From assembly GCF_053078305.1 (NCBI RefSeq), contig NZ_CP166879.1: a DNA stretch of 64,000 nt; one strand, 5' to 3'. Below, piece after piece: positions 1 through 55,014 of the stretch. Within the stretch, counting starts at the first letter, position 1. Each line of letters begins with the position of its first letter. Made by a program: the position numbers and the translations under genes. The notes under the pieces were generated by a model. That model was not told where the DNA came from. It saw only the letters and a list, made by a program, of their open reading frames with translations, and made no database searches.

Positions 1-8
1 GTCTTCAA

Positions 9-36
9 GAGCCAGCGCCCGCTGGCTCTTTTTTTA
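9..36 (+). terminator. Rho-independent terminator, presumably the 3' end of the upstream gene (asnS in K-12)
   Basis: GAGCCAGCG-ccc-GCTGGCTC hairpin followed by a run of 8 T, read directly. Confidence 0.6.
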
Positions 37-384
37 TCTTTTCTGTCAAGTTATCTGTTTGTTAAGTCAAGCAATCTATTTGCAACCCCGCCATAACGAT
101 CATCCTGTTACGGAATATTACATTGCAACATTTATGCGCAAAAAATAATCCGCATTCTTATTGCGGATTAGTTTTTTCTTAGCTGATAGCACAATTTTCA
201 TACTATTTTTTGGCGTTCTGGATGTCTGAAAGAGGATTTTGTGCCAGGTTGATAAAGTTTCCATCAGAAACAAAATTTCCGTTTAGTTAATTTAAATATA
301 AGGAAATCATATAAATAGATAAAAATTGCTGTAAATATCATCACGCCTCTATGGAAATATGACGGTGTTCACAAAGTTCCTTAA

Positions 385-448
385 TTTTTACTTTTAGTTA
401 CATATTTTTTCTTTTTGAAACCAAATCTTTATCTTTGTAGCACTTTCA
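385..448 (+). promoter_or_regulatory. ompF promoter-proximal OmpR-binding region (F1-F2-F3-like sites)
   Basis: TTTACTTTTAGTTACATATTT, TTCTTTTTGAAACCAAATCT and TTATCTTTGTAGCACTTTCAC lie 150-210 bp upstream of the ompF ATG and match the remembered K-12 ompF control region. Confidence 0.6.
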
Positions 449-595
449 CGGTAGCGAAACGTTAGCTTGAATGGAAAGATGCCTGCAGACACATAAAGAC
501 ACCAAACTCTCATCAATAGTTCCGTAAATTTTTATTGACAGAACTTATTGACGGCAGTGGCAGGTGTCATAAAAAAACCATGAGGGTAATAAATA

Positions 596-1669
596 ATGAT
601 GAAGCGCAATATTCTGGCAGTGATCGTCCCTGCTCTGTTAGTAGCAGGTACTGCAAACGCTGCAGAAATCTATAACAAAGATGGCAACAAAGTAGATCTG
701 TACGGTAAAGCTGTCGGTCTGCATTATTTTTCTAAAGACAATGGTGTAAACAGTTACGGCGGAAACGGCGACAAAACTTATGCCCGTCTTGGTTTTAAAG
801 GGGAAACACAAATCAATTCCGATCTGACCGGTTATGGTCAGTGGGAATATAACTTCCAGGGTAACAACTCTGAAGGCGCTGATGCCCAGAAAGGTAACAA
901 AACTCGTTTGGCATTCGCAGGTCTGAAATTCGCTGATGCGGGTTCTATCGACTACGGTCGTAACTACGGTGTGGTTTACGACGCACTGGGTTACACCGAT
1001 ATGCTGCCTGAGTTTGGCGGTGACACGGCATACAGCGATGACTTCTTCGTTGGTCGTGTAGGCGGCGTTGCTACCTATCGTAACTCCAACTTCTTCGGTC
1101 TGGTTGACGGCCTGAACTTTGCCGTTCAGTACCTGGGCAAAAACGAACGTGCTGGTATTCCTGAGCGTTCCAACGGCGACGGCGTCGGTGGCTCTATCAG
1201 CTACGAATTCGAAGGCTTTGGTATCGTAGGTGCTTACGGTGCAGCAGACCGTACCGACGCCCAGGAAGCCGAATTCCGCGGTCAGGGTAAAAAAGCTGAA
1301 CAGTGGGCAACTGGTCTGAAGTATGACGCGAACAACATCTACCTGGCAGCGAACTACGGTGAAACCCGTAACGCTACGCCAATTGAAGGCGGCTTCGCCA
1401 ACAAAACGCAAGACGTTCTGTTAGTTGCGCAATACCAGTTCGATTTCGGTCTGCGTCCGTCCATCGCTTACACCAAATCTAAAGCGAAAGACGTAGAAGG
1501 TATCGGTGATGTTGATCTGGTGAACTACTTTGAAGTGGGCGCAACCTACTACTTCAACAAAAACATGTCCACCTATGTTGACTACATCATCAACCAGATC
1601 GATTCTGACAACAAACTGGGCGTAGGTTCAGACGACACCGTTGCTGTGGGCATCGTTTACCAGTTCTAA
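596..1669 (+). CDS. ompF: Outer membrane porin OmpF (loop-variant allele)
   Basis: 357-aa ORF; signal peptide [22 protein letters not shown] and beta-barrel core match remembered E. coli OmpF; divergence is confined to loop segments. Confidence 0.95.
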
Positions 1670-1694
1670 TAGCACACCTCTTTGTTAAATGCCG

Positions 1695-1726
1695 AAAAAA
1701 AAAGGACTTTGGTCCTGTTTTTTTTA
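1695..1726 (+). terminator. ompF intrinsic terminator
   Basis: A-run, AGGAC-tttg-GTCCT hairpin, then T-run immediately after the ompF stop. Confidence 0.55.
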
Positions 1727-1854
1727 TGCCTTCCAGAGCAATCTCACGTCTTGCAAAAACAGCCTGCGTTTTCATCAGTAATAGTTGGAATTTTGTAAAT
1801 CTCCCGTTACCCTGATAGCGGACTTCCCTTCTGTAACCATAATGGAACCTCGTC

Positions 1855-3045
1855 ATGTTTGAGAACATTACCGCCGCTCCTGCCGACCCGATTCTGGGCC
1901 TGGCCGATCTGTTTCGTGCCGATGAACGTCCCGGCAAAATTAACCTCGGGATTGGTGTCTATAAAGATGAGACGGGCAAAACCCCGGTACTGACCAGCGT
2001 GAAAAAGGCTGAACAGTATCTGCTCGAAAATGAAACCACCAAAAATTACCTCGGCATTGACGGCATCCCTGAATTTGGTCGCTGCACTCAGGAACTGCTG
2101 TTTGGTAAAGGTAGCGCCCTGATCAATGACAAACGTGCTCGCACGGCACAGACTCCGGGTGGCACTGGCGCACTACGCGTGGCTGCCGACTTCCTGGCAA
2201 AAAATACCAGCGTTAAGCGTGTGTGGGTGAGCAACCCAAGCTGGCCGAACCATAAGAGCGTCTTTAACTCTGCAGGTCTGGAAGTTCGTGAATACGCTTA
2301 TTATGATGCGGAAAATCACACCCTTGACTTCGATGCACTGATTAACAGCCTGAACGAAGCTCAGGCTGGCGACGTAGTGCTGTTCCATGGCTGCTGCCAT
2401 AACCCAACCGGTATCGACCCTACGCTGGAACAATGGCAGACACTGGCACAACTCTCCGTTGAGAAAGGCTGGTTACCGCTGTTTGACTTCGCTTACCAGG
2501 GTTTTGCCCGTGGTCTGGAAGAAGATGCTGAAGGACTGCGCGCTTTCGCGGCTATGCATAAAGAGCTGATTGTTGCCAGTTCCTACTCTAAAAACTTTGG
2601 CCTGTACAACGAGCGTGTTGGCGCTTGTACTCTGGTTGCTGCCGACAGTGAAACCGTTGATCGCGCATTCAGCCAAATGAAAGCGGCGATTCGCGCTAAC
2701 TACTCTAACCCTCCAGCACACGGCGCTTCTGTTGTTGCCACCATCCTGAGCAACGATGCATTACGTGCGATTTGGGAACAAGAGCTGACTGATATGCGCC
2801 AGCGTATTCAGCGTATGCGTCAGTTGTTCGTCAATACGCTGCAGGAAAAAGGGGCAAACCGCGACTTCAGCTTTATCATCAAACAGAACGGCATGTTCTC
2901 CTTCAGTGGTCTGACAAAAGAACAAGTGTTGCGTCTGCGCGAAGAGTTTGGCGTATATGCTGTTGCTTCTGGTCGCGTAAATGTGGCAGGGATGACACCA
3001 GATAACATGGCTCCGCTGTGCGAAGCGATTGTGGCAGTGCTGTAA
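1855..3045 (+). CDS. aspC: Aspartate aminotransferase
   Basis: 396-aa ORF matching remembered AspC ([20 protein letters not shown]...). Confidence 0.97.
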
Positions 3046-3051
3046 GCGTTA

Positions 3052-3088
3052 AAAACAATGAAGCCCGCTGAAAAGCGGGCTTTTTTAT
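3052..3088. terminator. Bidirectional intrinsic terminator between convergent aspC and gloC
   Basis: AAGCCCGC-tgaaaa-GCGGGCTT hairpin flanked by an A-run and a T-run. Confidence 0.7.
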
Positions 3089-3095
3089 GTGTGCC

Positions 3096-3743
3096 TTACC
3101 AGACGGGCATTTCGTCTTGCAGGAAGGGATTATGCAGGCGTTCATAACCAAGTGTGGATAATGGTCCGTGACCCGGAATAAATGTCACGTCATCCCCCAG
3201 TGGCAGCAATTTATCTTTGATTGAAGAAATCAGTTGATTATGATCGCCACGCGGGAAGTCACTGCGCCCTACTCCGCCTTTGAAAATAACATCGCCAGAA
3301 ATCAGCAGCTTTGCCCGATCATCAAAAAACACGACATGACCCGGCGTATGCCCAGGGCAATGTAACACCTGTAAAGTCACATTCCCTATGCTGATGGTAT
3401 CGCCTTCTTTCAGCCAACGATCTGGCGTCAGCGGCTGACACTCTTCCAGACCAAACATACGACTTTGCGCAGGCAAGCCTTGCAGCCAGAACTCATCTTC
3501 TTTTTCCGGGCCAAAAACCGGCACGCCGTAATGTTGCGCCAGTTCCGCCGCTGCGCCAACGTGGTCCAGATGACCATGCGTCAGCAGGATCTGCATCAGT
3601 GTCAGGCCGCTGGCATCAACTTCCTGTTTGATTTTTTCCGCATCGCCGCCAGGATCGACCAGTGCGGCCAGTCGGGTTTGTTCACACCAGATCAATGAAC
3701 AGTTCTGGGAGAATGCGGTGACCGGAATAATACGATAGTTCAT
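3096..3743 (-). CDS. gloC: Hydroxyacylglutathione hydrolase GloC (YcbL), metallo-beta-lactamase fold
   Basis: 215-aa ORF with THGHLDH metal-binding motif; position after aspC. Confidence 0.9.
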
Positions 3744-3769
3744 ACTGCCCCTGTTTCGTTAAGCAATTA

Positions 3770-4318
3770 CTACCAGTGCCGTGCTGGCCCGGTATCAATA
3801 TGCACAAAGTTACTACGTGGGTAATATCCTACACCACCTGCGCGCATAGATAACGCGGCTTTGCGAATATTGCTTAACGCGATACCTTCAATATGGAAAT
3901 CCATCGCCTGGCCTTTAGTGTGATAGCTTTTCTTCGCTACTCCACGGCTGCGGGCGCGTAGTTCATTGTTGGTATCAATGGAACGATAACCGGAAATGAG
4001 TTGCACCGGTTTGCGGGTGCCTAATAACCCTTGCAGGCGATACAACTGGTCGAATAATCCTGGGTCGATGGACTTTATTTTGTTCGCGCGGTAATCGCGG
4101 AAAAAATGGTTAAGTTTTGCCAATTCTTCCTGAATATAGCCTCTGCCATCGAAAAACTCCGCTTTGATTGACTCTCCGGTATGAAGATTATTGAGTGTCA
4201 AAATGCGCGGGCGTGGGGTAGAGAGTGTTGCAAACGCAGGGGTCGGCAGGATGGCGGCACCGAGTGCAACGCCACCAAGCGCCAGCAATTTGCGGCGATT
4301 AGCGTCGAATTTGTCCAT
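3770..4318 (-). CDS. mepK: Peptidoglycan L,D-endopeptidase MepK (YcbK), Tat-exported
   Basis: 182 aa from MDKFDANRRKLLALGG (twin-arginine signal); the ORF-track start 3 codons upstream is rejected. Confidence 0.9.
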   Translation of the reverse strand: MDKFDANRRKLLALGGVALGAAILPTPAFATLSTPRPRILTLNNLHTGESIKAEFFDGRGYIQEELAKLNHFFRDYRANKIKSIDPGLFDQLYRLQGLLGTRKPVQLISGYRSIDTNNELRARSRGVAKKSYHTKGQAMDFHIEGIALSNIRKAALSMRAGGVGYYPRSNFVHIDTGPARHW

Positions 4319-4498
4319 GATAATCAAGTCTACAGGTCAATGTTATCGTTTATATGCACTTCTGGCGCACAAGAGGCACCTTAACCGCCCGTAAAGCAGA
4401 CGTCAAGATGACTCAACCCCAGCAGTGACGGGGGCTGCAGAGAACCACCCCCAATCATGCTAATTATTACGACAACTGATTTCCCCGAACTACTTCAT

Positions 4499-6346
4499 TT
4501 ACCTGATTAATTGTTCCGCTTTCGATACGATTTGCGAGCTGGATCGCGCAGGCAGATCATAATTGTAAATATCTGTACGATACTGGGTACGACCATCTGC
4601 ACCAACAAAGGCCGTCAGGTAGTAGAGATTCACCGGAATCGACTGCCGAATATTGACGTAACGTGTATCACCCTGCTTCAGCGCATCAGAAATACGTTTG
4701 TCATTCCAGCCTGCATCCTGCAACAGCATATTCGCCAGATCGGAAGCTTTATTCACTCGTACACAGCCTGAGCTCAATGCGCGTGTATCACGCTTGAACA
4801 GATTGTGGTTCGGCGTGTCATGCAAATAAATGGCCTCTGAACTCGGCATATTGAATTTATAGCGCCCCAGCGAGTTCCGTGGGCCTGGAGCCTGCTGGAA
4901 GCGAAACGGTAAATTCGAGGCCGTGATTGTAGACCAGTCAACCTGCCATGGGTCAATCGCTTCTCTGCTGTTCCAGCCGCGCATCACCGTATAGCCATGG
5001 CTTTCGAGATATCCCGGATCGTTGCGCACTTTCGGCAGAATATCTTTGCGTGCCAGAGTTGGTGGTACGTTCCACGGCGGGTTTACCACTACGTTGTTAA
5101 GTGCACTGCTCATCATCGGCGTTTTGCGATCGGGGCGACCGACAATGACTCGCGAATCCAGCACCTGATTGCCGTTCTGATAGTAGACCAGCGAATAGGC
5201 CGGAATGTTAACCATGATCCCGGTAGAAAGCTCTGTTGGCAGCAAGCGCAATCGCTGGATGTTGAGTGCCAACACGCCAGCACGCTGGGCGGGCGTTACG
5301 TTTAACCAGTCACGCGTTGCCGGGCCAATAGCACCATCTGCCCCCAATCCTTGCCATGCCTGAAAACGTTTAACGGCTTCCACCAGTTCATTATCGTAGG
5401 CGGCGCGAACGGCAGGCGCAGGTTTACTACGAGACGTCGTTTGCTTATCCATCGGCTTAGTTTCTGCTGTTTCAACAGTAACAGCGGATGGACTGACTAC
5501 CGCGTCAGTTGGCGTGTCATCGCCAGGTAGAGTAATTTTCGGCCCCCCGTCCAACATGCCTGTGCGTTGCAATATTTCACGCAACGCCGGTACGTCGTTA
5601 CTCCACTGCCCTGGGCGCAACGTTGCTTTGCCGGTCAGTTGGGGCCACGGTTTGGTGTCACTGAGTAAGGCCAGTAACGATTGATGCATCGCCGCATATT
5701 GCGGATGCTGCGGTGCCAGTCCTGCAACAAACGTAGGCAATTGACCTTTATCCAGCGCCTGCTGCCATTGGTTAATCACCGAAAGCGGCGGCGTTGCAAG
5801 CGCATAAGGTTTACTGCTATATAGCCAGCGAGTGCCTTTGACCGGAATATTTGCAATGAAATGGAGATAGCCCATCATCGCATCAGAGAGCACCACGTCG
5901 CGTGCCATCCCGTTAACACCAGGATCGGTCAGTAACTCTACCCATTTATTAAACTGCGGCTGGAAACCGGCAATCGCCACCTCTGCCAGCTGTTGCTGGA
6001 AGGCTTTAACAGCATCACGGTTTTCCCACATGGGTTGCATATCGCGTGCGGCATACAACAGTTGAAGCTGGTTAAGATAAACCGGCTTGTAACCTGCGGG
6101 TAATTGAGATTCGATTTGCGTGCGGGCTTTTTCTGCCGCACCTTCAGGCAATGGCTGGATCCCCGCCATTATTGCCGTGGCTTGCGCCTGCGGCAGTGCC
6201 TCGCCCTGTTCACTGACAGCCACCGGGCTGTCGCCAGGGATTACTTCAGGCTCATCGGCCTGCGCATTGAACAGTGGAGCGAATGTTACGGCCAGGCACA
6301 AACTGATTGCCGACAGCCGACGACCACACATCATATTAAGCAACAT
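4499..6346 (-). CDS. ldtD: L,D-transpeptidase LdtD (YcbB)
   Basis: 615-aa ORF with N-terminal signal peptide and YkuD-type catalytic region (HDTPNHNLF...SSGCVRV). Confidence 0.9.
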
Positions 6347-6567
6347 CCCTTGCCCCCTGTTTTTATCATACTCTGAATAGCCAGGCTGTTATTTTACGAC
6401 TTGCCTGTACAACGCCAATACTCACGAAAGTATGACGAGCAAGCCTGTTACTCATCAGGCTTATTTTCAGTATATAAACGCCGATACGTTTTTACATAAC
6501 CTAATGTAAAGAAGTTTAAAGAAAAGCGCGCCGTAATGTGCCACTTTTTTAGTGCAGAAACGGAGTT

Positions 6568-6602
6568 TTCGGAAAAAGAAAAGGCGGCATTGCTGCCGCC
6601 TT
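6568..6602 (-). terminator. Intrinsic terminator after mukB
   Basis: AAGGCGGCA-ttgc-TGCCGCCTT hairpin with a U-run on the minus strand. Confidence 0.6.
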
Positions 6603-6606
6603 AATT

Positions 6607-9600
6607 TTAACTCGCCTGAGAAGGCGCTTCGTCACTTCCTGGAAGCGTTTCAGGGAGTTGCGGCGCAAATCCTCGCAGGCCGACGACGTGAACGTGTTCG
6701 GTATTCTGGAAGACTTTACGCACCAGTTTATAGGTGGTGCCTTTCTCCGGGCTGATATTTTCCGGCGCTGCGATGATGAGCTGCATTTGCAAACGCTCAC
6801 ACAATTCAAACAGCGTGGCGATAGAACGAGCATCCAGTCGCGCTGCTTCATCGAGGAACAGCAGGCGGCAAGGAGAGATATCTTTACCGCGCAGGCGGCG
6901 AGATTCATCTTCCCAGCTTTGTACCACCATCACCAGAATCGACATACCGGTACCAATCGCCTCACCGGTCGACAATGCACCAGACTCTGCGCGCAACCAG
7001 CCATCGGAACCACGGTTAACCTCAACTTCCATTTCCAGATAGTTGCGGTAATCCAGCAGTTCTTCGCCAATGGTCTGCGGCGTGCGCTGCCCCATATCAA
7101 TCTGCGGATTAAGACGCTGATACAATTTCGCCAGCGCTTCCGAGAAGGTCAGACGGTTGCTGTTAAACAGATCCTGATGCTGCTCATGCTGTTCAGAGAG
7201 CACATCCAGCAGCATGGCGTGTGTTTCACGCACGTTCACGTTGAGGCGCACGCTGTTCACCTGACCAAACGATACGTTCTGCAACCCCTGGTTGAGCATA
7301 CGGATACGGTTCTGCTCGCGCTGAATGGTTTTGCGAATGATGTTCGCCACGCTGCGGGAACTGATCGCCAGTTTCTGTTCACGGGAGGTTAATTCTTCGG
7401 TCAGACGGCTAAGTTCGATCTCCATCTGTTCGATAGCTTCCACCGGATCATCGGTACGAATAATATCCTGACGAATACGTTCACGCAGATGCTGATAAAC
7501 CGCCACGAAGAACTGAATTTTACGCTCCGGACGTTTCGGATCTTCCGACATGCGCAGCACGTCGCGCAGATGTTCGTTATCCGCCACCGCCAGACGCAGC
7601 GCACCTAACGCCTTATCCGACATGGAACGCAAATCATCAGCGGAGAGATAAGCCAGCTCACGACGGTGTAAGCGCCGTTCAACGCCGTTATCTTTCACCA
7701 TGCGCATGACTGCACACCAGCCCGCTTTCGCGGTCACTACCTGCTCGCGCATCTCAAAGTAATCACGCTCCAGCTTGCGCAGTTTGCGGGTCAGGTTGTC
7801 CATCTCCGCTTCGCAGAAGGTGAGCGCTTTTTCCAGTTGATTGCGGCGCGAACGGTTATTGCTCAGTTGTGCATGCAGCTCGTCACGGCGAATACGTGCC
7901 CGCTCTTCTGCCCCGCTATCAGCACGCACGCCGATATCCTGCAATTCACGTTGCAGATCGTTGAGTAGCTCTTTTTTGGTGTCGTAAGAACTTTTCAGCG
8001 AAGCCAGCACCTGGTTGTACTGACTCAACTGCGCTGCGTGACCGCGCAACGCTTCGCGAGCGCGGGTACGCTCCGCTTCCGCCTGTTCCAGACGTTCACG
8101 CAGTTTTTCGTTGAGATCGTTGTTACCGCTAAGCATTTCTGCCGAGTCAGAGTAGCTAAAGTGCGCACGACGCTGCACCACTTCCGTCAGGGCAAACGCC
8201 TGCTGACGGGCATCGCGCTGCATCTGCTGAGAGTACGCGTAATCTTCTTTTAACTGTTCGAACTGTTCCGGGTCGCTCTGCAATACCGAAACGATCGGTT
8301 CCAGTTTCGCCAGTTGATTGCCAAACTGCTGAACAAAACGCGCGGCTTCCTGGGCTTCATCCAGACGTTCGCGGATTTCATCGACGCGATCCGCCAGGCT
8401 GTCATCAGCCAACAGGTTGAGACGCGGCAGAATGCGGTTCAGCGCCGTAACGCCCTCTTTCGCCTGCTCAAACTGAATACGCTGCTGCTGGTTATCATTT
8501 TCATGATTACTCAACGCCCGCTCCAGTTCGACGCGACGGCTGTTCAGTTGACGGATTTCTGCTTCCGGGTCAGACTCAAACGCCACCGCCAGATGACTAC
8601 CGATAAAGCGGCTGAACGCCTGATGCAAACGCTGGGTTTTCTGTACATCAAAGGAGAGCGTGGCGAAGCGTTCGGAAAGCACTTCACGCTCGGCATGGAG
8701 ACTTTCAATACGGCTTTCACGCGCAGCACGACCAAACAGCGGCACTTCCGGGAAACGTGAATAACGCCACTGACGATCGGCGATTTTCACCACCACCGCT
8801 TTTTCCAGCTCATCAACGCTGAACACGCTGTCATCGAATGACTGCGGATCCCCTTCGATCAAATAGAGATCTTCCGGGCAATCGGTCAAGCCTTCCAGGT
8901 GTTCAGTTACCTGTGATAGATCTGGCACCACGATGGCGTGGCGTGACGGGCCATACAGCGCTGAGAAGTACGGCGCATCTTCCAGGCTAACGTCGTCATA
9001 AATTTCTGACAGCAGCACACCACCAAAACGCTCCGCCAGCGCGTTCAGACGCTGATCTTCAGAGCCGCCAGGCTGGCTTAAACGTTCGATCTCTTCATCG
9101 ACGGCGTTTTTGCGCGCGCCTACTTCATCGCGTTCAACAATGGCCTCGCGCTCACGCTCCAGCAACTGTTGCAGATATTCAGTGACGTCCTGGCTGGAGG
9201 TGAACTCTTCGCCGCATTGTTCGCTCAACTGGTTGAGACTGTTTTGCGCTGCCAGCCAAACCGGTGCACGCTGCATCAAACTCTGAATGCGAGACTGCAG
9301 CTGTTCCTGCTCCTGGCGCAGTGCCATACGCTCTTCGCGGGCGTTAGACACGCTATCGGAAAGAGAGGCAATACGCGCTTCCAGCTCCTGATGCAGGGCT
9401 TCCAGTTCGTCGATATCAAAATTCTTGCCCTGACGTTTGCAGAAATCTGCCAGCAGACGCTCAGCTTCTTGCTGCTCGCGCAGACGCTGTTCCAGTTCAC
9501 TTAAGCGCATCCGCAACGGTTGAACCTGATCTGCCAGGTGACGCTGCTCGACCCCTTCGCGCAGCAGTTCGCGGGCGACATCCCACGCCTCGTTACGCGC

Positions 9601-42519: not shown

Positions 42520-44964
42520 TTACACCTTTTCAACCTGAACAAGGTTTGTATGTGACGGATTCCCCTTAGCGAGAGGAGACGGACGTTGAGTGGTCAGTAC
42601 GTTAATACAACCACCCTTATCGACACGTTTTGCATCCGGGTCATACCAGGCACCTTCACCCAGTGCGACCACACCCGGCATCATTCGTGGCGTCACTTTC
42701 GCCTCAATATGAACCTCACCACGATCGTTAAAGATCCTGACTTTATCGCCGTTGTGGATACCGCGTTTTTGGGCATCAAGCGGGTTGATCCACATTTCCT
42801 GACGGCAAGCCGCTTTCAGCACATCAACGTTGCCGTAAGTTGAGTGAACGCGAGATTTATAGTGGAAACCCGTAAGCTGCAGCGGATACTGTTTGTTCAG
42901 CGGATCCTGATAACTTTCAAAGCCCGGCGTGTAGATCGGCAGTGGATCGATCACATCGCCTTCTGGCAATTCCCAGGTAGCGGCAATGTCAGCCAGCGCC
43001 TGCGAATAAATCTCAATTTTGCCCGATGGCGTAGTCAGTGGGTTTGCCTGCGGATCTTCACGGAAGGCTTTATAAGCAACGTGATGCCCTTGTGGGTCGC
43101 GCTTTTTAAAGATCCCCTGCTTGCGGAACTCTTCAAACGTTGGCAGTTCAGGAATCGCTTCCCGCGACTGGGCATACAGATGCCGCATCCACTCTTCCTG
43201 TGTACGACCTTCAGTAAACTGTTGCTCAACGCCAAGACGTTTTGCCAGTTCGCTGGTCATCTCATAGATGGTCTTACATTCAAAGCGCGGTTTAATCACC
43301 TGATCGTTGAAAATCACGTAAGACATATTCCCGCAGGATGCATCCAGCGCAAAGTCCATCTGTTCGGAAGCGGTGCAGTCAGGCAGCAGGATGTCAGCAT
43401 ATTTCGCCGATGAAGTCATGTGGCAGTCGATAACCACAATCAGCTCGCACTTCTTATCATCCTGGAGGATTTCATGGGTACGGTTGATTTCAGAATGCTG
43501 GTTAATCAGGCAGTTACCGGCATAGTTCCAGATCATTTTGATCGGCACATCCAGCTTATCTTTCCCGCGCACACCATCACGCAGCGCCGTCATTTCCGGG
43601 CCACGTTCAATGGCATCGGTCCACATAAACATCGAAATGCTGGTCTGGATCGGGTTTTCCAAGGTCGGCATACGGACAAACGGTAAGCTGTATGAACCTT
43701 CACGCGCGCCGCTGTTCCCTCCATTAATACCAACGTTACCGGTCAGAATCGCCAGCATCGAGATAGCGCGAGTCGCGATTTCGCCGTTGGCGTGGCGCTG
43801 CGGCCCCCATCCCTGGCTGATAAACGCCGGTTTGGTACTGCCGATTTCACGAGCCAGTTTGATGATTTTGTCTGCCGGAACACCGGTGATTTGCGAGGCC
43901 CATTCCGGTGTTTTAGCCACGCCATCTGGCCCTTCACCCAGAATATAAGCTTTATAGTGGCCATTTTTCGGCGCACTGGCTGGCAGGGTTTTCTCGTCAT
44001 AGCCAACGCAATATTTATCGAGGAATGCCTGATCCACCAGGTTTTCGGTGATCATGACATACGCCAGACCGTTAACCAGTGCGGCATCTGTTCCTGGACG
44101 AATAGGGATCCACTCATCTTCGCGCCCGGCACCGGTGTCGGTATAGCGCGGATCGATGATGATCATGCGGGCATTAGATTTCTGGCGTGCCTGTTCAAGA
44201 TAGTAAGTCACCCCACCGCCACTCATTCGCGTTTCGCCAGGGTTATTACCAAACAGCACTACCAGCTTACTGTTTTCGATATCCGACGGGCTGTTGCCAT
44301 CTGCCCAGCCGCCGTAGGTATAGTTCAGACCTTCCGCAATTTGCGCGGAAGAGTAGTCACCGTAATGGTTCAGATAACCGCCGCAGCAGTTCATCAGCCG
44401 CGCGACCAGGGTATTTCCCGGCGGCCAGGAGCGGGTCATGGTGCCACCCAGCGTACCGGTGCCATAGTTAAGATAGATGGATTCGTTGCCGTACTCTTTG
44501 ATCAGGCGCTGCATATTGGTCGCGATGATGTCGTAGGCTTCTTCCCAGCTAATGCGCTCGAATTTGCCTTCACCGCGCGCCCCGACTCGTTTCATCGGAT
44601 ATTTCAGGCGGTCCGGATTATAGACACGGCGACGCATGGAACGCCCACGCAAACAGGCGCGAACCTGGTGCAGGCCGTCGTAATTGTCATCGCCGGTATT
44701 GTCCGTTTCGACATATTTGATTTCACCGTCCACGACGTGCATACGTAGCGGGCAGCGACTACCACAGTTAACTGTACAGGCGCTCCAGATAACCTTTTCG
44801 TCTGATTTTGTTGGAATGGCGCTATCGACAGCGTGCGCAATCCGACTAAAAGGTAATGTTAATGCGCTGCTGGCCATTGCCAGGCCGCCGATCGCTGTCG
44901 TTTTTACCAAACCACGGCGACTCACCTCAGCAGCCAATACCGCATCAGGGATTTTCGTTTTCAT
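42520..44964 (-). CDS. dmsA: DMSO reductase catalytic subunit (molybdopterin, Tat-exported)
   Basis: 814-aa ORF; twin-arginine signal (EVSRRGLVKT); molybdopterin oxidoreductase family. Confidence 0.97.
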   Translation of the reverse strand: MKTKIPDAVLAAEVSRRGLVKTTAIGGLAMASSALTLPFSRIAHAVDSAIPTKSDEKVIWSACTVNCGSRCPLRMHVVDGEIKYVETDNTGDDNYDGLHQVRACLRGRSMRRRVYNPDRLKYPMKRVGARGEGKFERISWEEAYDIIATNMQRLIKEYGNESIYLNYGTGTLGGTMTRSWPPGNTLVARLMNCCGGYLNHYGDYSSAQIAEGLNYTYGGWADGNSPSDIENSKLVVLFGNNPGETRMSGGGVTYYLEQARQKSNARMIIIDPRYTDTGAGREDEWIPIRPGTDAALVNGLAYVMITENLVDQAFLDKYCVGYDEKTLPASAPKNGHYKAYILGEGPDGVAKTPEWASQITGVPADKIIKLAREIGSTKPAFISQGWGPQRHANGEIATRAISMLAILTGNVGINGGNSGAREGSYSLPFVRMPTLENPIQTSISMFMWTDAIERGPEMTALRDGVRGKDKLDVPIKMIWNYAGNCLINQHSEINRTHEILQDDKKCELIVVIDCHMTSSAKYADILLPDCTASEQMDFALDASCGNMSYVIFNDQVIKPRFECKTIYEMTSELAKRLGVEQQFTEGRTQEEWMRHLYAQSREAIPELPTFEEFRKQGIFKKRDPQGHHVAYKAFREDPQANPLTTPSGKIEIYSQALADIAATWELPEGDVIDPLPIYTPGFESYQDPLNKQYPLQLTGFHYKSRVHSTYGNVDVLKAACRQEMWINPLDAQKRGIHNGDKVRIFNDRGEVHIEAKVTPRMMPGVVALGEGAWYDPDAKRVDKGGCINVLTTQRPSPLAKGNPSHTNLVQVEKV

Positions 44965-45263: not shown

Positions 45264-46256
45264 CTAATCGATGGACAGTTTATGGACACTTTCAGCCAGC
45301 GGATTAAAGCTGATTGCATCCTGTAAAAAGTCCGGCGAAAAATGCGCATACGTCATCGTTTGTTGAATCGTGGCATGGCCCAGGATTCGTTGTAGCGTAA
45401 CGATATTTCCGCCATTCATCATGAAATGTGTAGCGAATGTATGACGCATGACATGGGTGGCCTGCCCTTTCGGTAAGTCCGGCTTCACCTCCTGAAGGAT
45501 CTCCCGAAATCTGAGGTAATCAGCCTGGTACAACAATCCGGTTCTGCGGGTTTTAATTAACGCAAGTACCGCATCAGAAACGGGAACGGCGCGAGATTTT
45601 CCGTTCTTGGTGTTAAAGAACATCACGCGGTTACCTACAATATGTTCCCCACGTAAACCAGCTGCTTCACCCCACCTTGCCCCCGTGGAAAGACACAGAA
45701 TGGCAACACGCCGCGCATCTCCATCGAGTCGTTCAAGCAGTCGTTCAATCTCCTCATCTGAAAGAAAGGCCATCTCTGTGTTCCTGACTTTCAGCTTACG
45801 TATTCCCCGAACCGGGTTTTCGTTATGGAACACCTCACCCTCAATCAGCGAGCTGAACATTGCAGACAAGGCACACAAATCGCGGTTAATGCTGGAAGGC
45901 ATTAACCCGGCCTGTAATTTGTCGGACCGGTACCCGAGCATAAATTTTCGCGTCATCTGACTGGCACGAGGATCACCCATCTCACGGTTTATCTTTTCCA
46001 GTCTGACCCTGTAGGTATCCCCGTAATCCTGGTTACGACCATCAAGCAACCACCAGGCCTCTATCAGTTCGGATAACCGACGCTGATCTGCTGGCTTAGC
46101 CTGCCATGGCTTATCATGAAAATTCTGCAAAACATACCTTTCAAACTCCTGCGCCTTTGACTTCAGGGTAAAAATCTTACGAATCCGCTTTCCTTCCGTC
46201 CCTTGTGGCCTTACATCAACCTTATAACGTCCGTCTTTGAGTTGCTTAATCGACAT
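45264..46256 (-). CDS. int: P2-type tyrosine integrase
   Basis: 330 aa from MSIKQLKDGRYKVDVRP; strong similarity to remembered P2 Int (LSTGARWGEAA, HxxRHTFATHF, ILGHATIQQTMTYAHF); ATG with GGAGGGG Shine-Dalgarno. Confidence 0.9.
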   Translation of the reverse strand: MSIKQLKDGRYKVDVRPQGTEGKRIRKIFTLKSKAQEFERYVLQNFHDKPWQAKPADQRRLSELIEAWWLLDGRNQDYGDTYRVRLEKINREMGDPRASQMTRKFMLGYRSDKLQAGLMPSSINRDLCALSAMFSSLIEGEVFHNENPVRGIRKLKVRNTEMAFLSDEEIERLLERLDGDARRVAILCLSTGARWGEAAGLRGEHIVGNRVMFFNTKNGKSRAVPVSDAVLALIKTRRTGLLYQADYLRFREILQEVKPDLPKGQATHVMRHTFATHFMMNGGNIVTLQRILGHATIQQTMTYAHFSPDFLQDAISFNPLAESVHKLSID

Positions 46257-46325
46257 GATTAGCCCCTCCAACGGATAAATTAACCAAACACTCCCTGCGG
46301 GATGAAACCCGCTCGATGTGTAACG

Positions 46326-46673
46326 TCAGCCAGCATTGCGGCCTGATCGGGATGATTTTTGGGTAACGTCGATTGAAGCCAGATCGCCCTCCGACTGAGA
46401 AGATCCATCAAGAGAGAGAGCCGGGGCAATTTGACCCCCAGCTTCAAACGTTTCATCAGTTGTTAACCAAAGTGCATATTTTTTAAAACGTAAATTTTTT
46501 GTGATCTTTAATAAGATCTCACTTCCGATTCCATCTTGCCTTCCCGTTTCGTAATACCTCTGCGTATTAACAGGAATCCCTGTAAGCTCAAAGAATTGCT
46601 TCCTTGTAAGCCTCTCACTTTTCCGGATCATCAAGATTTTTTCACCGATACTTATTGACAGTGTCGAATTCAT
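46326..46673 (-). CDS. P2 C-type immunity repressor (HTH)
   Basis: 115 aa from MNSTLSISIGEKILMIRKSERLTRKQ; resembles remembered P2 C (EKIVLMRKSEYLSRQQLADLTG, GQIAPAL); upstream of int on the same strand. Confidence 0.8.
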   Translation of the reverse strand: MNSTLSISIGEKILMIRKSERLTRKQFFELTGIPVNTQRYYETGRQDGIGSEILLKITKNLRFKKYALWLTTDETFEAGGQIAPALSLDGSSQSEGDLASIDVTQKSSRSGRNAG

Positions 46674-46774
46674 ACCACTAAAATCCTCGCAAAAGTGTCG
46701 TAATTTCGACATTAAACAAACCAAAACAAACCTTCATAAGGTGCAATAGGCGCACCTGTGCGAGAGGATAACAA

Positions 46775-47299
46775 ATGCGGGACTTCATTGCCGATAAAGA
46801 GTTATCTGACACCGATCACACAACTGGAGCGGCGTACATCAACGCCGATACCAGTCAACAAGAAGCAACAGATAACAACGACGAACAAAAGCCACAGCGC
46901 ACATATAAAAAAGGGGCAACCCTGCGGCTGGATGGCCCAATAGCCGGGCTTTGCTCACTTGAAAAAGGGGCCGCCTACATCGGATTAACAAAAACAGCAT
47001 TACGCGCAGCTCTCCAGCGTAACCAGATGCCAGGGCATAAAACCCGCTCAAACCCTGAAGATGAGAATTCGGATGGTGTTTGGTGGTTTAACGTCAGAGA
47101 GTGGGACAAGCTGGCCGACGAACTCCCGGAATGTGAGCCACCAGAATGGCACAACTGGAAAAGCTACTGGACATACGACCGCCAGAAAAGAAAGTTTACC
47201 CCGGCTGATAAGGAAGATTGCCAGACCGTCAATGGAAAACGGGTTTACAAAGGCAGAAAGTCAAAGCTGGAACAGAGCCAGGATGTAAACGAACGGTGA
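46775..47299 (+). CDS. Cox-like excisionase/early regulator with N- and C-terminal extensions; start uncertain
   Basis: The central segment ATLRLDGPI...AAYIGLTKTALRAAL...DGVWWFNVREWD aligns by eye with P2 Cox; first gene of the rightward early operon, divergent from C. Confidence 0.55.
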   Translation: MRDFIADKELSDTDHTTGAAYINADTSQQEATDNNDEQKPQRTYKKGATLRLDGPIAGLCSLEKGAAYIGLTKTALRAALQRNQMPGHKTRSNPEDENSDGVWWFNVREWDKLADELPECEPPEWHNWKSYWTYDRQKRKFTPADKEDCQTVNGKRVYKGRKSKLEQSQDVNER

Positions 47300-47305
47300 T
47301 GAACG

Positions 47306-47701
47306 ATGAGCGGCAAAAATAAGTCAGAAAAAAACACAACCGTCCTTAAGCAGTTAAGCCTCCTGAAAGAGGAACACAAGGACGCCACGATACTGATGCA
47401 TCTGGAAGGCTCACCGAAAATAACAATCACAACAACCTATAGCGAGTTACACAAAGAGCTTGAAGGATTAATTAACTTTTGTTCAAAGCTAAAAGCGAAT
47501 GAAAACATTGATGACCTGATACTTAAACCAGAAGCAGAGTTCGGGCACTTTTGCGAAAGTAGAGAAAATGGATGCATCGGAATAATGCTATACGCAACCC
47601 GCGGAATAATGATTAATCTGCCCGTTGAGCAGGCTGTGGATATATTCGGAGAAATGGCACTTAATAAAACCACTATTTACAAAAGAAAAATGCCGGAGTA
47701 A
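47306..47701 (+). CDS. Hypothetical phage early protein (lower-GC moron candidate)
   Basis: 131-aa ORF starting 7 nt after the cox-like stop; GC ~40% by hand count against ~55-60% in the rest of the prophage. Confidence 0.5.
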   Translation: MSGKNKSEKNTTVLKQLSLLKEEHKDATILMHLEGSPKITITTTYSELHKELEGLINFCSKLKANENIDDLILKPEAEFGHFCESRENGCIGIMLYATRGIMINLPVEQAVDIFGEMALNKTTIYKRKMPE

Positions 47702-47714
47702 CCCGGCATGGTTA

Positions 47715-47909
47715 TTAGTATGTTGGTCCCTTAGAAAAGTTCCAGGAACTCTTGCGAGGGTATTTATGAAGTACTTTTTCGCGGACATCGTTAGCCAGAT
47801 CTCTGATTTGATCGTGCTTATCATCAGAAGACGGAGGAACTTCGGGGATTTTATCCACGATTTCAATTACTGATTTAAGCATTTTTATTAATTCATCGTC
47901 GTAAGACAT
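47715..47909 (-). CDS. Hypothetical small protein, reverse-oriented inside the early operon
   Basis: 64 aa from MSYDDELIKMLKS with a perfect AGGAG Shine-Dalgarno 6 nt upstream; convergent with the 47306 gene; lower GC. Confidence 0.5.
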   Translation of the reverse strand: MSYDDELIKMLKSVIEIVDKIPEVPPSSDDKHDQIRDLANDVREKVLHKYPRKSSWNFSKGPTY

Positions 47910-48016
47910 TGTTATCTCCTTTTTCTGGTTGTGTGGAAACACCAGAATACCACGCGCCGGGCGTGGTTAAACATCCCGGCACTGATTTTCATTTAACTTA
48001 AACGGGGTTTTCCGAT

Positions 48017-48355
48017 ATGACACAGCGACGCAGCTTCCGCACTGGCGCAGAACGCCACGCAGCCCGTTTCTCAACCAGCGCATCACGCAGCAACTCGCAC
48101 TACAGCCTGCAGGAAACGCACGCCACACCTGACGGGCATCCGGTTAAACAAACCGGTAAACACACCTGGCTGATTAATGATGCCGGAATTGTCATTCACC
48201 GGGGCGCACGCAACCCGATTACCGGAAATACCTGTTACTCCCTGACTCGCGGAGATGAGCAGTTCGGGCAGGATTTCACCCTGCACGAAGCATTAAGAAC
48301 GGCAGACCGGTTAATCAGCGGTCGCAGTTTTCAGCACCCGGAACATCGCCGCTGA
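48017..48355 (+). CDS. Hypothetical phage early protein
   Basis: 112-aa ORF in the early operon; no recognisable motif. Confidence 0.45.
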   Translation: MTQRRSFRTGAERHAARFSTSASRSNSHYSLQETHATPDGHPVKQTGKHTWLINDAGIVIHRGARNPITGNTCYSLTRGDEQFGQDFTLHEALRTADRLISGRSFQHPEHRR

Positions 48356-48374
48356 TAAATAAAAGGATTCAGCC

Positions 48375-48617
48375 ATGATCGAAGCCTACAAAATACTTAT
48401 TAATAATGCGTTGCAGCGTTATCACTTCGAACTCGCAAACCGGGGGGTAACCCGGGACGAAGGACTTCGTAACTCACTGCGGGGCGCAATTATGGGACTG
48501 TATAACTGCGCACTGGGCAGCGATGACCGCGAAGCACTGGAAGAATTAAAAGTTATTGTGGCCGAACTGTTTGAAGGTGAAATCGTTGAGCCTTATTTCA
48601 CAGAGGTGGCAGCATGA
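48375..48617 (+). CDS. Hypothetical phage early protein
   Basis: 80-aa ORF with AAGGAT Shine-Dalgarno; stop overlaps the next start (ATGA). Confidence 0.5.
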   Translation: MIEAYKILINNALQRYHFELANRGVTRDEGLRNSLRGAIMGLYNCALGSDDREALEELKVIVAELFEGEIVEPYFTEVAA

Positions 48618-48739
48618 GCGTATTTCTTTCATGGGTGATTCTGATTATTTCCGTGCTTATGGCGATTGGCATTATGCGAATTATCGAAGCGCTGAAAAAT
48701 ATCGAATCTTTATTTACTGGCGAAGAACGCCGTAAATAA
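48614..48739 (+). CDS. Small hydrophobic (single-TM) peptide, translationally coupled
   Basis: 41 codons MSVFLSWVILIISVLMAIGIMRIIEALKNIESLFTGEERRK; absent from the ORF track (<60 aa); ATGA overlap with the upstream gene. Confidence 0.4.
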   Translation: MSVFLSWVILIISVLMAIGIMRIIEALKNIESLFTGEERRK

Positions 48740-48818
48740 ATAACCAACCGGACAGAAAACATTAAAACCATCCGCATCTGCGGAGGGCTTCACTCAATCC
48801 AGAAACGGAGAAACAGCT

Positions 48819-49097
48819 ATGAGCACCAATACACCTACAGAAATAAACAAACTATTTACCGACCCGGCGCATATTGAATTGACGCAAAAAACGCTGACTG
48901 AAATAACCAATGTACTGGATGAAAGAATATCAGAAATAGATAAAGACAAGCATTTTGCTACTTACATGGCCCTGCAAATGCAAAGCATGGCAATGGTGAC
49001 AGCAAAACAGACCATCAGTGAACTCTATATGAAAAACCTGCGCCTTGAGCACGAACTGGCAGAACTCCGGGCACAGTCCGGCCAGTTTTCAGCGTGA
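48819..49097 (+). CDS. Hypothetical phage early protein
   Basis: 92-aa ORF with ACGGAG Shine-Dalgarno; helical C-terminus. Confidence 0.5.
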   Translation: MSTNTPTEINKLFTDPAHIELTQKTLTEITNVLDERISEIDKDKHFATYMALQMQSMAMVTAKQTISELYMKNLRLEHELAELRAQSGQFSA

Positions 49098-49108
49098 GGG
49101 GCAGGACG

Positions 49109-49360
49109 ATGAACAGCATATTTACCGCCACAAGACGAACCCTGCTGACGCATTTCACCGATGCCGCGGGCCGCGAATTCATGGTGGAAAGTTATTTAAT
49201 CACAACGACCACGCCGTGCCCGTCAGACGCTGATTATCTCTACATCCATCTGGCTGACGGAACACAAATCACCGCGATTGCCAGTACCGTTCGCGAAGTA
49301 ATGACCATCAGAGGGGCATGGAAATCAGAAACACAAGCCCACGGAGAGCTGCGGCCATGA
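49109..49360 (+). CDS. Hypothetical phage early protein
   Basis: 83 aa from MNSIFTATRR with GAGGGG Shine-Dalgarno; stop overlaps the next start. Confidence 0.5.
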   Translation: MNSIFTATRRTLLTHFTDAAGREFMVESYLITTTTPCPSDADYLYIHLADGTQITAIASTVREVMTIRGAWKSETQAHGELRP

Positions 49361-49569
49361 TCAGCAAGTACACCACCAACGCACGTAAACCCGGTAAAGA
49401 CGCACGCCACCACATCGCCGTACTCCGCAATCTGTTACTGGAGGAAATCGACGACTTCACGGCGACGCTGAGCGGTCCGGGCGCACCAGTAACACCAGGT
49501 GAGATCCACCGGGACCTTAAACGCCGTATTGAAAACGCCATTGATTACACCCTGAACCCGACCGAATAA
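49357..49569 (+). CDS. Hypothetical phage early protein
   Basis: 70 aa from MISKYTTNARKPGK; ATGA coupling to the upstream gene. Confidence 0.45.
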   Translation: MISKYTTNARKPGKDARHHIAVLRNLLLEEIDDFTATLSGPGAPVTPGEIHRDLKRRIENAIDYTLNPTE

Positions 49570-49595
49570 CCGGAACAGTAACGGAGGTTATCGCG

Positions 49596-50150
49596 ATGAG
49601 ACTTACACCAATGGGAATACCGGGCAAAGCCCCGGCACATGTGAAGGCGTGGACACAGCAGGAAGATCGGTTACTCATCTCGCTTTATCAGGAACACAAC
49701 ACACATCAGATGGCTGAACGAATTCAGCGAACCCGTAAAGCAGTTATGCACCGGATTCGTTTTTTACGTAATCGTGGGCTGATTGGCCGCAAGAGAAAAG
49801 CACCACTGAGTACAGAAGCCATAGCCTTTCTTATTAAAAACCGTCATGTAAAAACCGCACAGGAAATGGCTCTGGAAGTGGGATGTAGTGAGTGCACAGT
49901 GAGGTACACACTGCGTAAACGGGGTTACAACCTGAAAAAATGCGGTGAGAACCACCATTGCGCCAGATACAGCGATCATCTGGTTGAGCTGGTCACGGAG
50001 CTACGCGACATACACAACATGACGTTCTGCATGATCGCTGAACACATCAACAGCACGATACAGATGCACATTAACGACGATGCGGCGTTTCATCTCTACC
50101 ACCGCCGCACAGCGGCTGACGCCGCGCTCTGTGAACTGTTACCGGGCTGA
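49596..50150 (+). CDS. Putative DNA-binding early protein with two HTH-like segments
   Basis: 184-aa ORF with GGAGG Shine-Dalgarno; two helix-turn-helix-like stretches judged by eye; no family assigned. Confidence 0.5.
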   Translation: MRLTPMGIPGKAPAHVKAWTQQEDRLLISLYQEHNTHQMAERIQRTRKAVMHRIRFLRNRGLIGRKRKAPLSTEAIAFLIKNRHVKTAQEMALEVGCSECTVRYTLRKRGYNLKKCGENHHCARYSDHLVELVTELRDIHNMTFCMIAEHINSTIQMHINDDAAFHLYHRRTAADAALCELLPG

Positions 50151-50269
50151 GTGATCATCATGCACACACAAAAAAACCGCTTGCCATGCCGCAATCAGTC
50201 AGGTTACATTCCCACTGCACCTCATAAAACGGGTGCCGGGATTACCACCCCGCCGACTACACAAGCGCA

Positions 50270-50291
50270 CAACCGCGCCAGCGGTTTTTTT
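50270..50291 (+). terminator. Intrinsic terminator inside the prophage early region
   Basis: AACCGC-gcca-GCGGTT hairpin followed by TTTTTTT. Confidence 0.5.
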
Positions 50292-50470
50292 GTGCGTACT
50301 GTATCGCCACGTCTTTTTCGCGTCAGAATTATGGCGGGGCGTACGGGGCCGACTTCGGTCGGGCCGGGGTCTTGTGTAGCCGGTTGTGGTAACCCTGTAC
50401 GTCTCGCCACCCTGAGATTACCGCCTCGGGTTGGTGAGTTTTCACAACTTACTACACAAGGGGCCACACC

Positions 50471-50698
50471 ATGGCAAACCGCAAACAACAGCGCGTCCGC
50501 GCTGAGCGTCTTCACATCCGCACCGAAATCAACCGCAGACTCTGGCGCGCATCACGCGTCGCGCAAATCATGTACATCAACATGCTGCATGAACACGCAC
50601 ACGCGCTGTCAGACCGTTACTGTGCCGCCGTCTTCAGCTACCTGGCGGATGACCTGGCAGAGCTGCAGGACCTTATCAACCAGCAACACCACCACTAA
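50471..50698 (+). CDS. Hypothetical phage protein
   Basis: 75-aa ORF with AAGGGG Shine-Dalgarno; basic N-terminus, His-rich C-terminus. Confidence 0.45.
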   Translation: MANRKQQRVRAERLHIRTEINRRLWRASRVAQIMYINMLHEHAHALSDRYCAAVFSYLADDLAELQDLINQQHHH

Positions 50699-50766
50699 AC
50701 AACATCCTGAAGCCATCCCGCACCCGTGCGCGGGAGGCTTCCGCACGTCTGTTACCGGAGGTTCTC

Positions 50767-51189
50767 ATGAAGAACGTTAAGGGACTTTCAGATATTCAGG
50801 ATTTTTTTAACTGGATGTGGGCAGTGGATCCCCGGCTGGCTTCCCGCCTGAACGACTGGCACGACTATTACCGCCGCGCCTGTAAACAGGCCGCCAGACG
50901 CGTCACCACATACGGGGATTTCTCCTTCACCGTTGACGGCAGTTACCGCGTGGACGTGAAAGGCGATGGTGATGGTTTTGGTTTTGGTTTATTTCACATC
51001 AACGGAACCGACAGCACCGCCATCAGCTGGTCGTCGTCAGAGATGACGCTTGTTCTGGAAATGACAAACCACAGCGTGGCCGTGAAAGGTATATACACCG
51101 CAGAAGACTTTATCGGTGAATACCAGCGCCTTCTCGTGCTGTACCGGGCAGCGTTTCAGGCGGCAACTGCCGGGGAGTGCGACGCATGA
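50767..51189 (+). CDS. Hypothetical phage protein
   Basis: 140-aa ORF with GGAGG Shine-Dalgarno; stop overlaps the gpA start (ATGA). Confidence 0.5.
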   Translation: MKNVKGLSDIQDFFNWMWAVDPRLASRLNDWHDYYRRACKQAARRVTTYGDFSFTVDGSYRVDVKGDGDGFGFGLFHINGTDSTAISWSSSEMTLVLEMTNHSVAVKGIYTAEDFIGEYQRLLVLYRAAFQAATAGECDA

Positions 51190-53705: not shown

Positions 53706-54106
53706 CCCGCTTTTATTGCGCCATGCAGCGCCAGCGTTTTGACGAAATGATGCGCCAGCGCACGCCCTTACTGACCCTGAACAACATTGCCACGGGGCCA
53801 CAACCGGGCGATGAGCTGGAAATCACGGTCGTCAGTCCCGATCGCACCACCACGGCCATCATCACCGACATACTCAACGGACGACCGGACAGCACCAACC
53901 GCAGCTGGCTTGTCGCCGTTCGTCCGCGCCGTCCGCCCGGAGAGCCGGAGCCGCTCACGCCTGCCGGAAAAATCATGCGGCAGTACCACGAAGAGCAGGA
54001 ACACAAACACAACGCAGAACTGACCAGAACACTGGCATCGATTAACCGCAAAGCGGCAATTGCCCGCTATGTGCATTCAGCCGCAGGCAGACAATCACGC
54101 AGGTAA
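53702..54106 (+). CDS. Hypothetical protein, first gene of the accessory cassette after gpA
   Basis: 134-aa ORF; ATGA overlap with the gpA stop; ACGGAGG Shine-Dalgarno; Pro-rich central segment. Confidence 0.55.
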   Translation: MTRFYCAMQRQRFDEMMRQRTPLLTLNNIATGPQPGDELEITVVSPDRTTTAIITDILNGRPDSTNRSWLVAVRPRRPPGEPEPLTPAGKIMRQYHEEQEHKHNAELTRTLASINRKAAIARYVHSAAGRQSRR

Positions 54107-54154
54107 ACAAAGACCATGAACATAACCAGAAACAGCCAACTAAAGGAGCGCACC

Positions 54155-54648: not shown

Positions 54649-54661
54649 AGGAGCTGGTGAG

Positions 54662-54688: not shown

Positions 54689-54713
54689 CGAAGCAGCAGA
54701 CAAGCGAAGCGCG

Positions 54714-54977: not shown

Positions 54978-55014
54978 CTTACCTCCCGATAACACGTATC
55001 CCGGGGAAGACATT

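Follow-up and report, generated by a model that had tools for sequence, protein, structure and literature searches.

The locus examined here raises the question of how a porin comes to present an outer surface that differs from the K-12 form while its barrel stays the same, and what kind of variation such an allele represents in Escherichia coli. OmpF is a main entry route of beta-lactams and fluoroquinolones, and T-even-like phages, several colicins, and CDI toxins also use it as their receptor or translocator. We analysed a stretch of 64,000 nucleotides (hereafter the window; contig NZ_CP166879.1 of RefSeq assembly GCF_053078305.1), in which ompF lies at positions 596..1669; the gene, its parts, its upstream region, and the hairpin that follows it are given on the plus strand. 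A preliminary description, made from the letters alone, had recognised an OmpF allele with a K-12-like signal peptide and strand core, had suggested that its differing segments, including a "shortened" one, plausibly lie in surface-exposed loops, and had read them as the expected signature of diversifying selection.

The gene is an intact ompF of the short-L6 allele class and encodes WP_000977905.1. A six-frame scan of the window gives an ATG..TAA open reading frame at 596..1669 (357 codons and a stop), whose residues 1–357 align to residues 1–362 of the PDB OmpF chains of K-12 (3hw9, 2omf, and others) with E = 8e-216. RefSeq labels the identical ompF DNA (100%) of strain DSM 103246 as “porin OmpF” under the same accession, and Pfam PF00267 is precomputed for the representative of the identical protein cluster. 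The signal peptide (22 codons, 596..661) aligns without a change to that of K-12, and the protein ends in VYQF. Full-length similarity, locus, a predicted 16-strand fold, the L3 constriction, the signal peptide, and the C-terminal Phe all agree with an OmpF orthologue. The first part of the preliminary description is thus borne out, and the four peptides that it quoted are present in the translation.

The surroundings of the gene are those of K-12. Upstream lies the asnS–ompF intergenic region, which was located by comparison with the annotated loci of K-12 and DSM 103246 and holds the promoter/regulatory region and the 5′ UTR (1..595); it differs from K-12 at 1–6 positions per 100 nt, an ordinary level for E. 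coli. Downstream, a terminator-like hairpin can be read from the sequence at 1694..1726 (an A-run, an AGGAC/GTCCT stem, and a T-run), followed by aspC (1855..3045) and then gloC, mepK, ldtD, and mukB. The flanks of the gene align with the asnS–ompF–aspC–gloC region of K-12. AsnS, AspC, and PncB have the same protein accessions in DSM 103246 and K-12.

Compared with K-12 MG1655, the protein has 20 substitutions, one additional residue after mature R163, and lacks six residues (mature 241–246), which amounts to 27 changed columns. Loop boundaries were taken from an AlphaFold2 model of the window allele (37-sequence alignment, pLDDT 80.5, 16 strands), which superimposes on OmpF crystal structures with TM scores of 0.91/0.96 and an rmsd of 1.4 Å. 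Published anchors, namely K25 in L1, residues 164–167 in L4, R235 in L6, and L3 at 102–135, fit these boundaries (PMC12152960).

The extracellular loops hold 22 of the 27 changed columns. In L1 (residues 47–57) and its junction with strand 2 (734..775), alignment and model place G26D, E29V, and M38K (mature numbering), two columns in the loop itself and M38K at the junction. L2 (residues 89–101, 860..898) has the single change T77K and keeps the latching-loop residue E71. Five columns fall in L4 (residues 181–195, 1136..1180), where NERD-TARR is replaced by NERAGIPER through one insertion and four substitutions, and six in L5 (residues 219–232, 1250..1291), namely N198D, L199A, Q203E, P204F, L205R, and N207Q. 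The remaining eight are in L6 (residues 258–270, 1367..1405), which in the alignment has a short form compared with K-12 TPITNKFTNTSGFANK. Outside the loops, Y90F, V93A, and F96I map to the periplasmic turn T2 and the neighbouring strand ends (929..949), and Y182F to the periplasmic end of strand 8 (1208..1210). No changed column is found in L3, L7, L8, or the mid-membrane strands.

The concentration of amino-acid changes in loops is real and far beyond chance. Aligning the allele to K-12 and mapping its differences onto the structural model, along the lines of two checks that the preliminary description had proposed, shows that the allele is not identical to K-12 and that its differences are not evenly spread: changed columns are enriched in loops with an odds ratio of 11.9 (Fisher p = 3e-8), and the enrichment persists within the diverged tract alone (p = 2e-6) or when loops are padded by two residues (p = 1.6e-5). 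The placement of the differing segments in surface loops therefore stands for L1, L4, L5, L6, and one residue of L2, and fails for the four changes on the periplasmic side. The residues of the constriction are unchanged, namely the basic K16, R42, R82, and R132, the acidic D113, E117, and D121 that face them, G119, G120, and the PEFGG motif, and so are the latch residue E71 and its partner R100. In L3 (residues 125–153, 968..1054), the residue check and the dS comparison reveal only synonymous changes and a protein identical to K-12. Since L3 and the pore residues are the same as in K-12, the diffusion properties are expected to be unchanged.

The DNA tells more about the origin of these changes than the protein does. 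The allele class is defined by a divergent tract in the centre of the gene, which spans about 715..1388 in comparison with K-12 and holds all the amino-acid differences; class-fixed differences, obtained from 9 carriers and 6 K-12-type alleles, lie at 733..1388. Counted against K-12 per 100 nt, there are 0 differences at 594–693, 6–22 at 694–1475, 0–1 at 1476–1675, and about 1 over the next 6 kb. Altogether about 105 differences are packed into about 780 nt, as against 0–3 per 100 nt outside, and the borders between the divergent tract and the near-identical flanks are abrupt. In a comparison of 18 strains, 17 have the same first 104 nt of the coding sequence. From K-12-type alleles, the central tract diverges by 12.5% in DNA.

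Most of this divergence is silent. By the Nei–Gojobori method, the core (K-12 codons 36–270) has a dS of 0.485 and a dN of 0.053 against K-12 (dN/dS 0.11), corresponding to 57 synonymous and 27 non-synonymous differences. The loops L1, L2, L4, L5, and L6 reach a dS of about 1.2 and a dN of 0.19 (dN/dS 0.16), the non-loop core has a dS of 0.31–0.36 and a dN of about 0.014–0.016 (dN/dS 0.04), and L3 shows 7 differences, all of them synonymous (dS 0.47, dN 0). The ends of the gene are nearly free of change, with dS and dN both 0 for codons 1–35 and values of 0.016 and 0 for codons 271–362. The neighbouring genes aspC, gloC, and ldtD have a dS of 0.044, 0.027, and 0.026, respectively, with a dN of 0–0.006. 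Neutral divergence in the middle of the gene is 10–20 times that of its surroundings, and recent diversification in place is therefore ruled out. The gene is a mosaic: its signal-peptide end, its last third (strands 12–16 with L7 and L8), and the genes on either side have ordinary E. coli sequence, whereas a middle of about 675 bp, covering L1–L6, belongs to a divergent lineage of ompF sequence.

These figures bear directly on the idea that pressure from phages or colicins made the loops of this strain's ompF accumulate indels and point mutations locally. The clustering of amino-acid changes in loops and the known role of OmpF as a phage and colicin receptor would both fit such an origin; however, the core has 57 synonymous differences beside its 27 non-synonymous ones, and the protein-identical L3 is as diverged at silent sites as the core around it. 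The distribution of alleles is against it as well. Among 5,426 complete E. coli genomes, the full gene is found at ≥99% identity in 484, and a 781-nt core at ≥99% in 483, at 95–99% in 3, and at 80–90% in 4,936 (listed values 86.7–88.9%), with no allele at 90–95% identity. Thus intermediates between 89% and 95% are lacking in this set, whereas an identical protein recurs in hundreds of genomes of different backgrounds, and the short L6 is a widespread state outside the K-12 type. We consider an origin by local diversification very improbable. The changes are not fresh loop-by-loop ones; they belong to a 12.5% divergent tract with a loop dN/dS of 0.12–0.16 that is shared by a recombining class.

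The window allele belongs to a discrete minority class carried by about 9% of the complete genomes of E. coli. Every other allele that we fetched encodes 362 aa. The K-12-type alleles, whose backgrounds are as much as 2.8% apart, vary among themselves by 0–4.6% in the core, and each is 10.7–13.7% away from the window type. Of the window type itself, 13 carriers were fetched with flanks, 10 of which were used for the flank comparison, and backgrounds were judged from about 11 kb of flanks. WP_000977905.1 is encoded by every intact copy among the 13, and two carriers share one 4-nt frameshift.

One allele in several backgrounds, together with recombinants between classes, indicates that the tract moves by recombination. 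The flanks of the carriers form at least three groups that are 1.6–2.2% apart (DSM 103246 and APEC37; E21, MLI108K3, 22AH104, and Ch1; HS-02, MS6198, and CUVET19), and the 676-bp cores across these groups are only 0–5 bases apart, giving a class diversity of 0–0.7%. In most between-group pairs, the core differences are fewer than expected from the flank rate (P from 7e-6 to 0.03). Recombinants are seen in the 2 HS-C allele (WP_000977907.1), which has a window-type L1 block and is K-12-type in the remainder, and in REL606, which has a window-type synonymous patch near 1009–1047 in the L3 region. At ≥99% identity, the window-type L1 block occurs in 763 genomes and the L4–L5 block in 486, and the window-type L6 junction sequence is present in 494 complete genomes. 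From these counts it follows that L4, L5, and L6 travel together: the three blocks are almost always linked, and L1 is the only one to reassort commonly, in about 5% of genomes. Up to position 1674 the window is the same as DSM 103246, and 33 differences follow in the next 6 kb, which looks like another recombination breakpoint just 3′ of ompF.

Where the divergent middle came from can be approached through the paralogous porins of the same genome and through other species. Conserved strand sequence among porin paralogues could support gene conversion from phoE, ompC, or ompN, and PhoE also has a short L6. At the 20 substituted columns, however, PhoE, the only paralogue compared directly, has the residue of the window at 3 and that of K-12 at 5, and conversion from PhoE was rejected on this ground. 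The non-loop core has a dN of only about 0.014–0.016, as against a protein divergence of about 40% to the paralogues, and a search of E. coli genomes with megablast sensitivity finds no other match to the L4–L5 block. Conversion from any of these paralogues is scarcely credible, the least probable of the origins that we weighed.

The comparison with other species changes the polarity of the most conspicuous difference. A short L6 is also found in E. albertii (TPIK-GGFANK), in L074 (a divergent Escherichia representative), in Citrobacter, Cedecea, and Enterobacter cloacae, and in PhoE of E. coli. Because the short form is common to other genera, E. albertii, and PhoE, it is the K-12 type that carries a 6-aa insertion in L6, and the window allele, described at first as “shortened”, has the widespread state. 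On the periplasmic side, the T2 state of the window is the same as that of L074 and nearly that of E. albertii and the Enterobacteriaceae family consensus; at these sites K-12 has the derived form. Window-type L1, L2, and the length of L4 also resemble states in other genera.

The distance between the central segment and the K-12 type equals that to the ompF of another Escherichia species. In the non-loop core, the window and K-12-type alleles are separated by a dS of 0.33–0.36, compared with 0.02–0.05 among K-12-type alleles, 0.30 between K-12 and L074, and 0.41 between K-12 and E. albertii. The same measure for the window type is 0.45 against L074, 0.65 against E. albertii, and 0.93–0.96 against Citrobacter. 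The ends of the gene, by contrast, place the allele with E. coli (dS 0.01). In core DNA identity, the window is nearest to Escherichia among the sequences compared, with K-12 first (87.5%), followed by L074 (86.1%), E. albertii (84.8%), and Citrobacter and others (≤80%). The matches listed in our species scan comprise E. albertii, the divergent “E. coli” SCPM-O-B-8794, Citrobacter, Enterobacter, Kosakonia, and others, and do not include E. fergusonii, E. marmotae, or E. ruysiae. Among these matches, with one genome per species, no donor is closer than K-12 to the window core, and none of the listed matches from another species has a window-type core. The 90% protein cluster of the window type gives no donor either, as all of its named members that were sampled are E. 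coli.

Such a depth could be explained by neutral introgression, in which a single import by homologous recombination brought the segment in from a divergent, unsampled Escherichia-like species, after which it drifted and hitch-hiked among E. coli lineages with no advantage of its loops. This would account for a core that is separated from every other E. coli allele by a distance of between-species size, for the very low diversity of the class, for a dN/dS below 1 throughout, and for several loop states that are common in other genera (D and K in L1, K in L2, the length of L4, “TDAQ” in L5, and the short L6). Against a neutral import stand the bounds of the tract, which stops just beyond the variable loops though the flanks recombine equally well, the presence of the allele in 9% of genomes and several backgrounds, and the strong loop bias of its amino-acid changes; moreover, the closest candidates among the listed matches, L074 and E. 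albertii, are further from the window core than K-12 is. We regard this explanation as unlikely. The low class diversity taken alone is ambiguous, since it fits a small balanced class and a fairly recent import alike.

Two tests of selection were applied. Pairwise dN/dS at loop codons does not exceed 1, and synonymous loop sites are near saturation, so the ratio is uninformative rather than negative. In a McDonald–Kreitman-style comparison, fixed differences (24 non-synonymous and 42 synonymous) show a higher non-synonymous share than polymorphic ones (10 and 43), with an odds ratio of 2.5 and p = 0.04 for a set of 16 unsystematic sequences and a crude classification of multi-base changes in L5. 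The loop bias of replacements and this marginal excess lend weak support to frequency-dependent persistence. Selection by phages or colicins is a plausible, weakly supported ultimate cause. Our literature searches returned nothing specific on functional differences between natural OmpF alleles or on balancing selection at ompF.

Taken as a whole, we think it probable that the window carries a functional ompF of the short-L6 class that is a mosaic with an old central cassette, exchanged by recombination, which alters the outer face of the porin and may persist by negative frequency-dependent selection. The cassette is swapped among E. coli lineages via homologous recombination, for which the invariant gene ends and flanks provide the homology. 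The barrel, the E71 latch, and the L3 constriction are the same as in K-12, and the protein would therefore be predicted from its sequence to form the same diffusion channel. Its outward face, altered in L1, L4, L5, L6, and one residue of L2, may have changed receptor specificity, and antibodies, phage K20, OmpF-using T-even relatives, colicins, and CDI toxins are the agents expected to read it. Most likely, a rare surface type would escape enemies that are adapted to the common one.

Several published observations concern these agents. Antibody epitopes are located on L1, L4, and L5 of OmpF, and mature residues 164–167 form a water-exposed epitope region (PMC12152960). Phage K20 binds L5–L7, a result of Traurig & Misra (1999) that PMC12032242 and bioRxiv 10.1101/2021.09.21.461324 both cite, and OmpF is a primary receptor of T-even-like phages (PMC8594841; PMC12032242). 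Loop polymorphism in OmpC and OmpF has been ascribed to pressure from phages and immunity, and that of porins is widely ascribed to CDI as well; polymorphism in L4, L5, and L7 of OmpC governs recognition by CdiA-EC536, and the OmpF variants tested were interchangeable as co-receptors (PMC5056734).

A bolder version of frequency-dependent persistence holds that the two ompF classes are a very old balanced polymorphism, in which the cassette, judged by synonymous divergence, split about when the Escherichia species separated and has been kept in E. coli at around 10% by phage or colicin selection. The window-type cassette would then branch outside K-12, E. albertii, and the cryptic-clade representative, and recombination would have wiped out the divergence at the gene ends. 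We put this forward as a tentative possibility, on the doubtful side. If true, ompF would be a clean bacterial case in which a trans-species polymorphism of a receptor comes down to a defined minimal cassette under selection (L1–L6).

For the mosaic reading that we prefer, the practical meaning is that about 1 in 11 E. coli genomes combines the usual channel with another outer face, and a further 5% or so has the L1 block only. This bears on the prediction of host range in phage therapy, on OmpF-based vaccines and nanobodies, and on typing, and antibiotic permeability should stay the same.

The allele is of an already known kind, as it is catalogued in RefSeq and loop-centred mosaic evolution has been published. 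The many carriers of WP_000977905.1 (for example DSM 103246, MS6198, E21, HS-02, and APEC37) have the protein of the window and ompF DNA that is 99.3–100% identical. With K-12 OmpF (P02931; PDB 2OMF, 3HW9; WP_000977920.1), the window allele shares the locus, the signal peptide, L3, L7, L8, and strands 12–16, and it differs in the 20 substitutions, the residue gained in L4, and the six residues fewer in L6. According to bioRxiv 10.1101/2021.09.21.461324, E. coli ompF evolves as a mosaic of about five groups with hypervariable extracellular-loop regions and gain or loss of L6 residues; these groups are discordant with the strain phylogeny, for which local recombination is invoked. The preprint treats fhuA, lamB, ompA, ompC, and ompF, and its OmpF groups resemble the window allele in being discrete and differing in loops. 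Relative to the preprint, the present analysis adds the dS figures, the number of genomes among 5,426 that carry each block, and the polarity of the L6 length change. The sharper points are the between-species depth of the cassette, the nearly complete linkage that joins L4 to L5 and L6, and the derived long L6 of K-12; the trans-species age of the cassette is a possible, mildly novel angle, and the only one. OmpC offers a parallel, being likewise a trimeric general porin with modular surface-loop variation on a conserved barrel, but its more than 220 variants have freely recombining loops, whereas L4, L5, and L6 of window-type ompF are nearly always inherited as one linked unit (PMC5056734 for OmpC).

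The ompF allele of strain 2 HS-C (locus L094; protein WP_000977907.1) is a recombinant, in which the window-type L1 block (window positions 715–808) is joined to a remainder of K-12 type. The window-type L1 block is present in 763 genomes, as compared to 486 with the rest of the cassette, an excess of about 277. A finer exchange was observed in the L3-coding region, where a short patch at approximately 1009–1047 carries window-type synonymous sites also in REL606 (L091), which has the E. coli B-type allele, and in a further comparison locus, L095. The protein is identical across this patch in both loci, and the shared synonymous sites indicate small-scale mosaic exchange between the allele classes.

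The first 104 nt of ompF (596–699), which include the translation-initiation region, are invariant in 17 of the 18 strains, in which the flanks diverge by up to 2.8%; this 5' region is presumably where the micF RNA pairs with ompF. Outside the coding tract, the sole site with a fixed difference between the nine carriers of the short-L6 allele and the six K-12-type strains is position 215, located 381 nt before the ATG of ompF; the sample being so small, this may be due to chance. Positions 1–1674 are identical to those of DSM 103246 (L002), while 33 differing sites occur over the next 6 kb (1675–7669), and a recombination breakpoint may be located right at the ompF terminator.

Two carriers, PEC1013 (L088) and 7/2 (L089), have the same allele and the same flank type, and ompF is annotated as a pseudogene in both. 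They share the same 4-nt insertion, CGAA, which causes a frameshift in ompF at the equivalent of position ~1349. Because the insertion is identical and both genes are annotated as pseudogenes, this looks like porin loss inside one clone.

Further downstream, K-12, REL606, O111 11128, and 2 HS-C have about 170–186 bp of additional DNA in the aspC–gloC intergenic region, at the point corresponding to positions 3076–3081. This extra DNA, probably a repetitive intergenic element, is missing in the window, in every short-L6 carrier, and in EDL933, as judged from the alignment together with the gloC coordinates.

At the other end of the window, a prophage (45264–64000) adjoins dmsA (42520–44964, minus strand) and continues past the window end. 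No tRNA gene was found anywhere in the 64 kb. Its GC content is 0.55–0.61, as compared to about 0.50 in the remaining window. The prophage belongs to the P2 family, and its genes encode an integrase (45264–46271, minus strand), a Cox-like protein (46775–47299), a GpA replication protein (51177–53705), a portal protein (55015–56088, minus strand), a large terminase (56064–57890, minus strand), a GpO scaffold (57844–59085), a DUF2586 protein (62611–63756), and a major capsid protein of P2 type (59097–60125).
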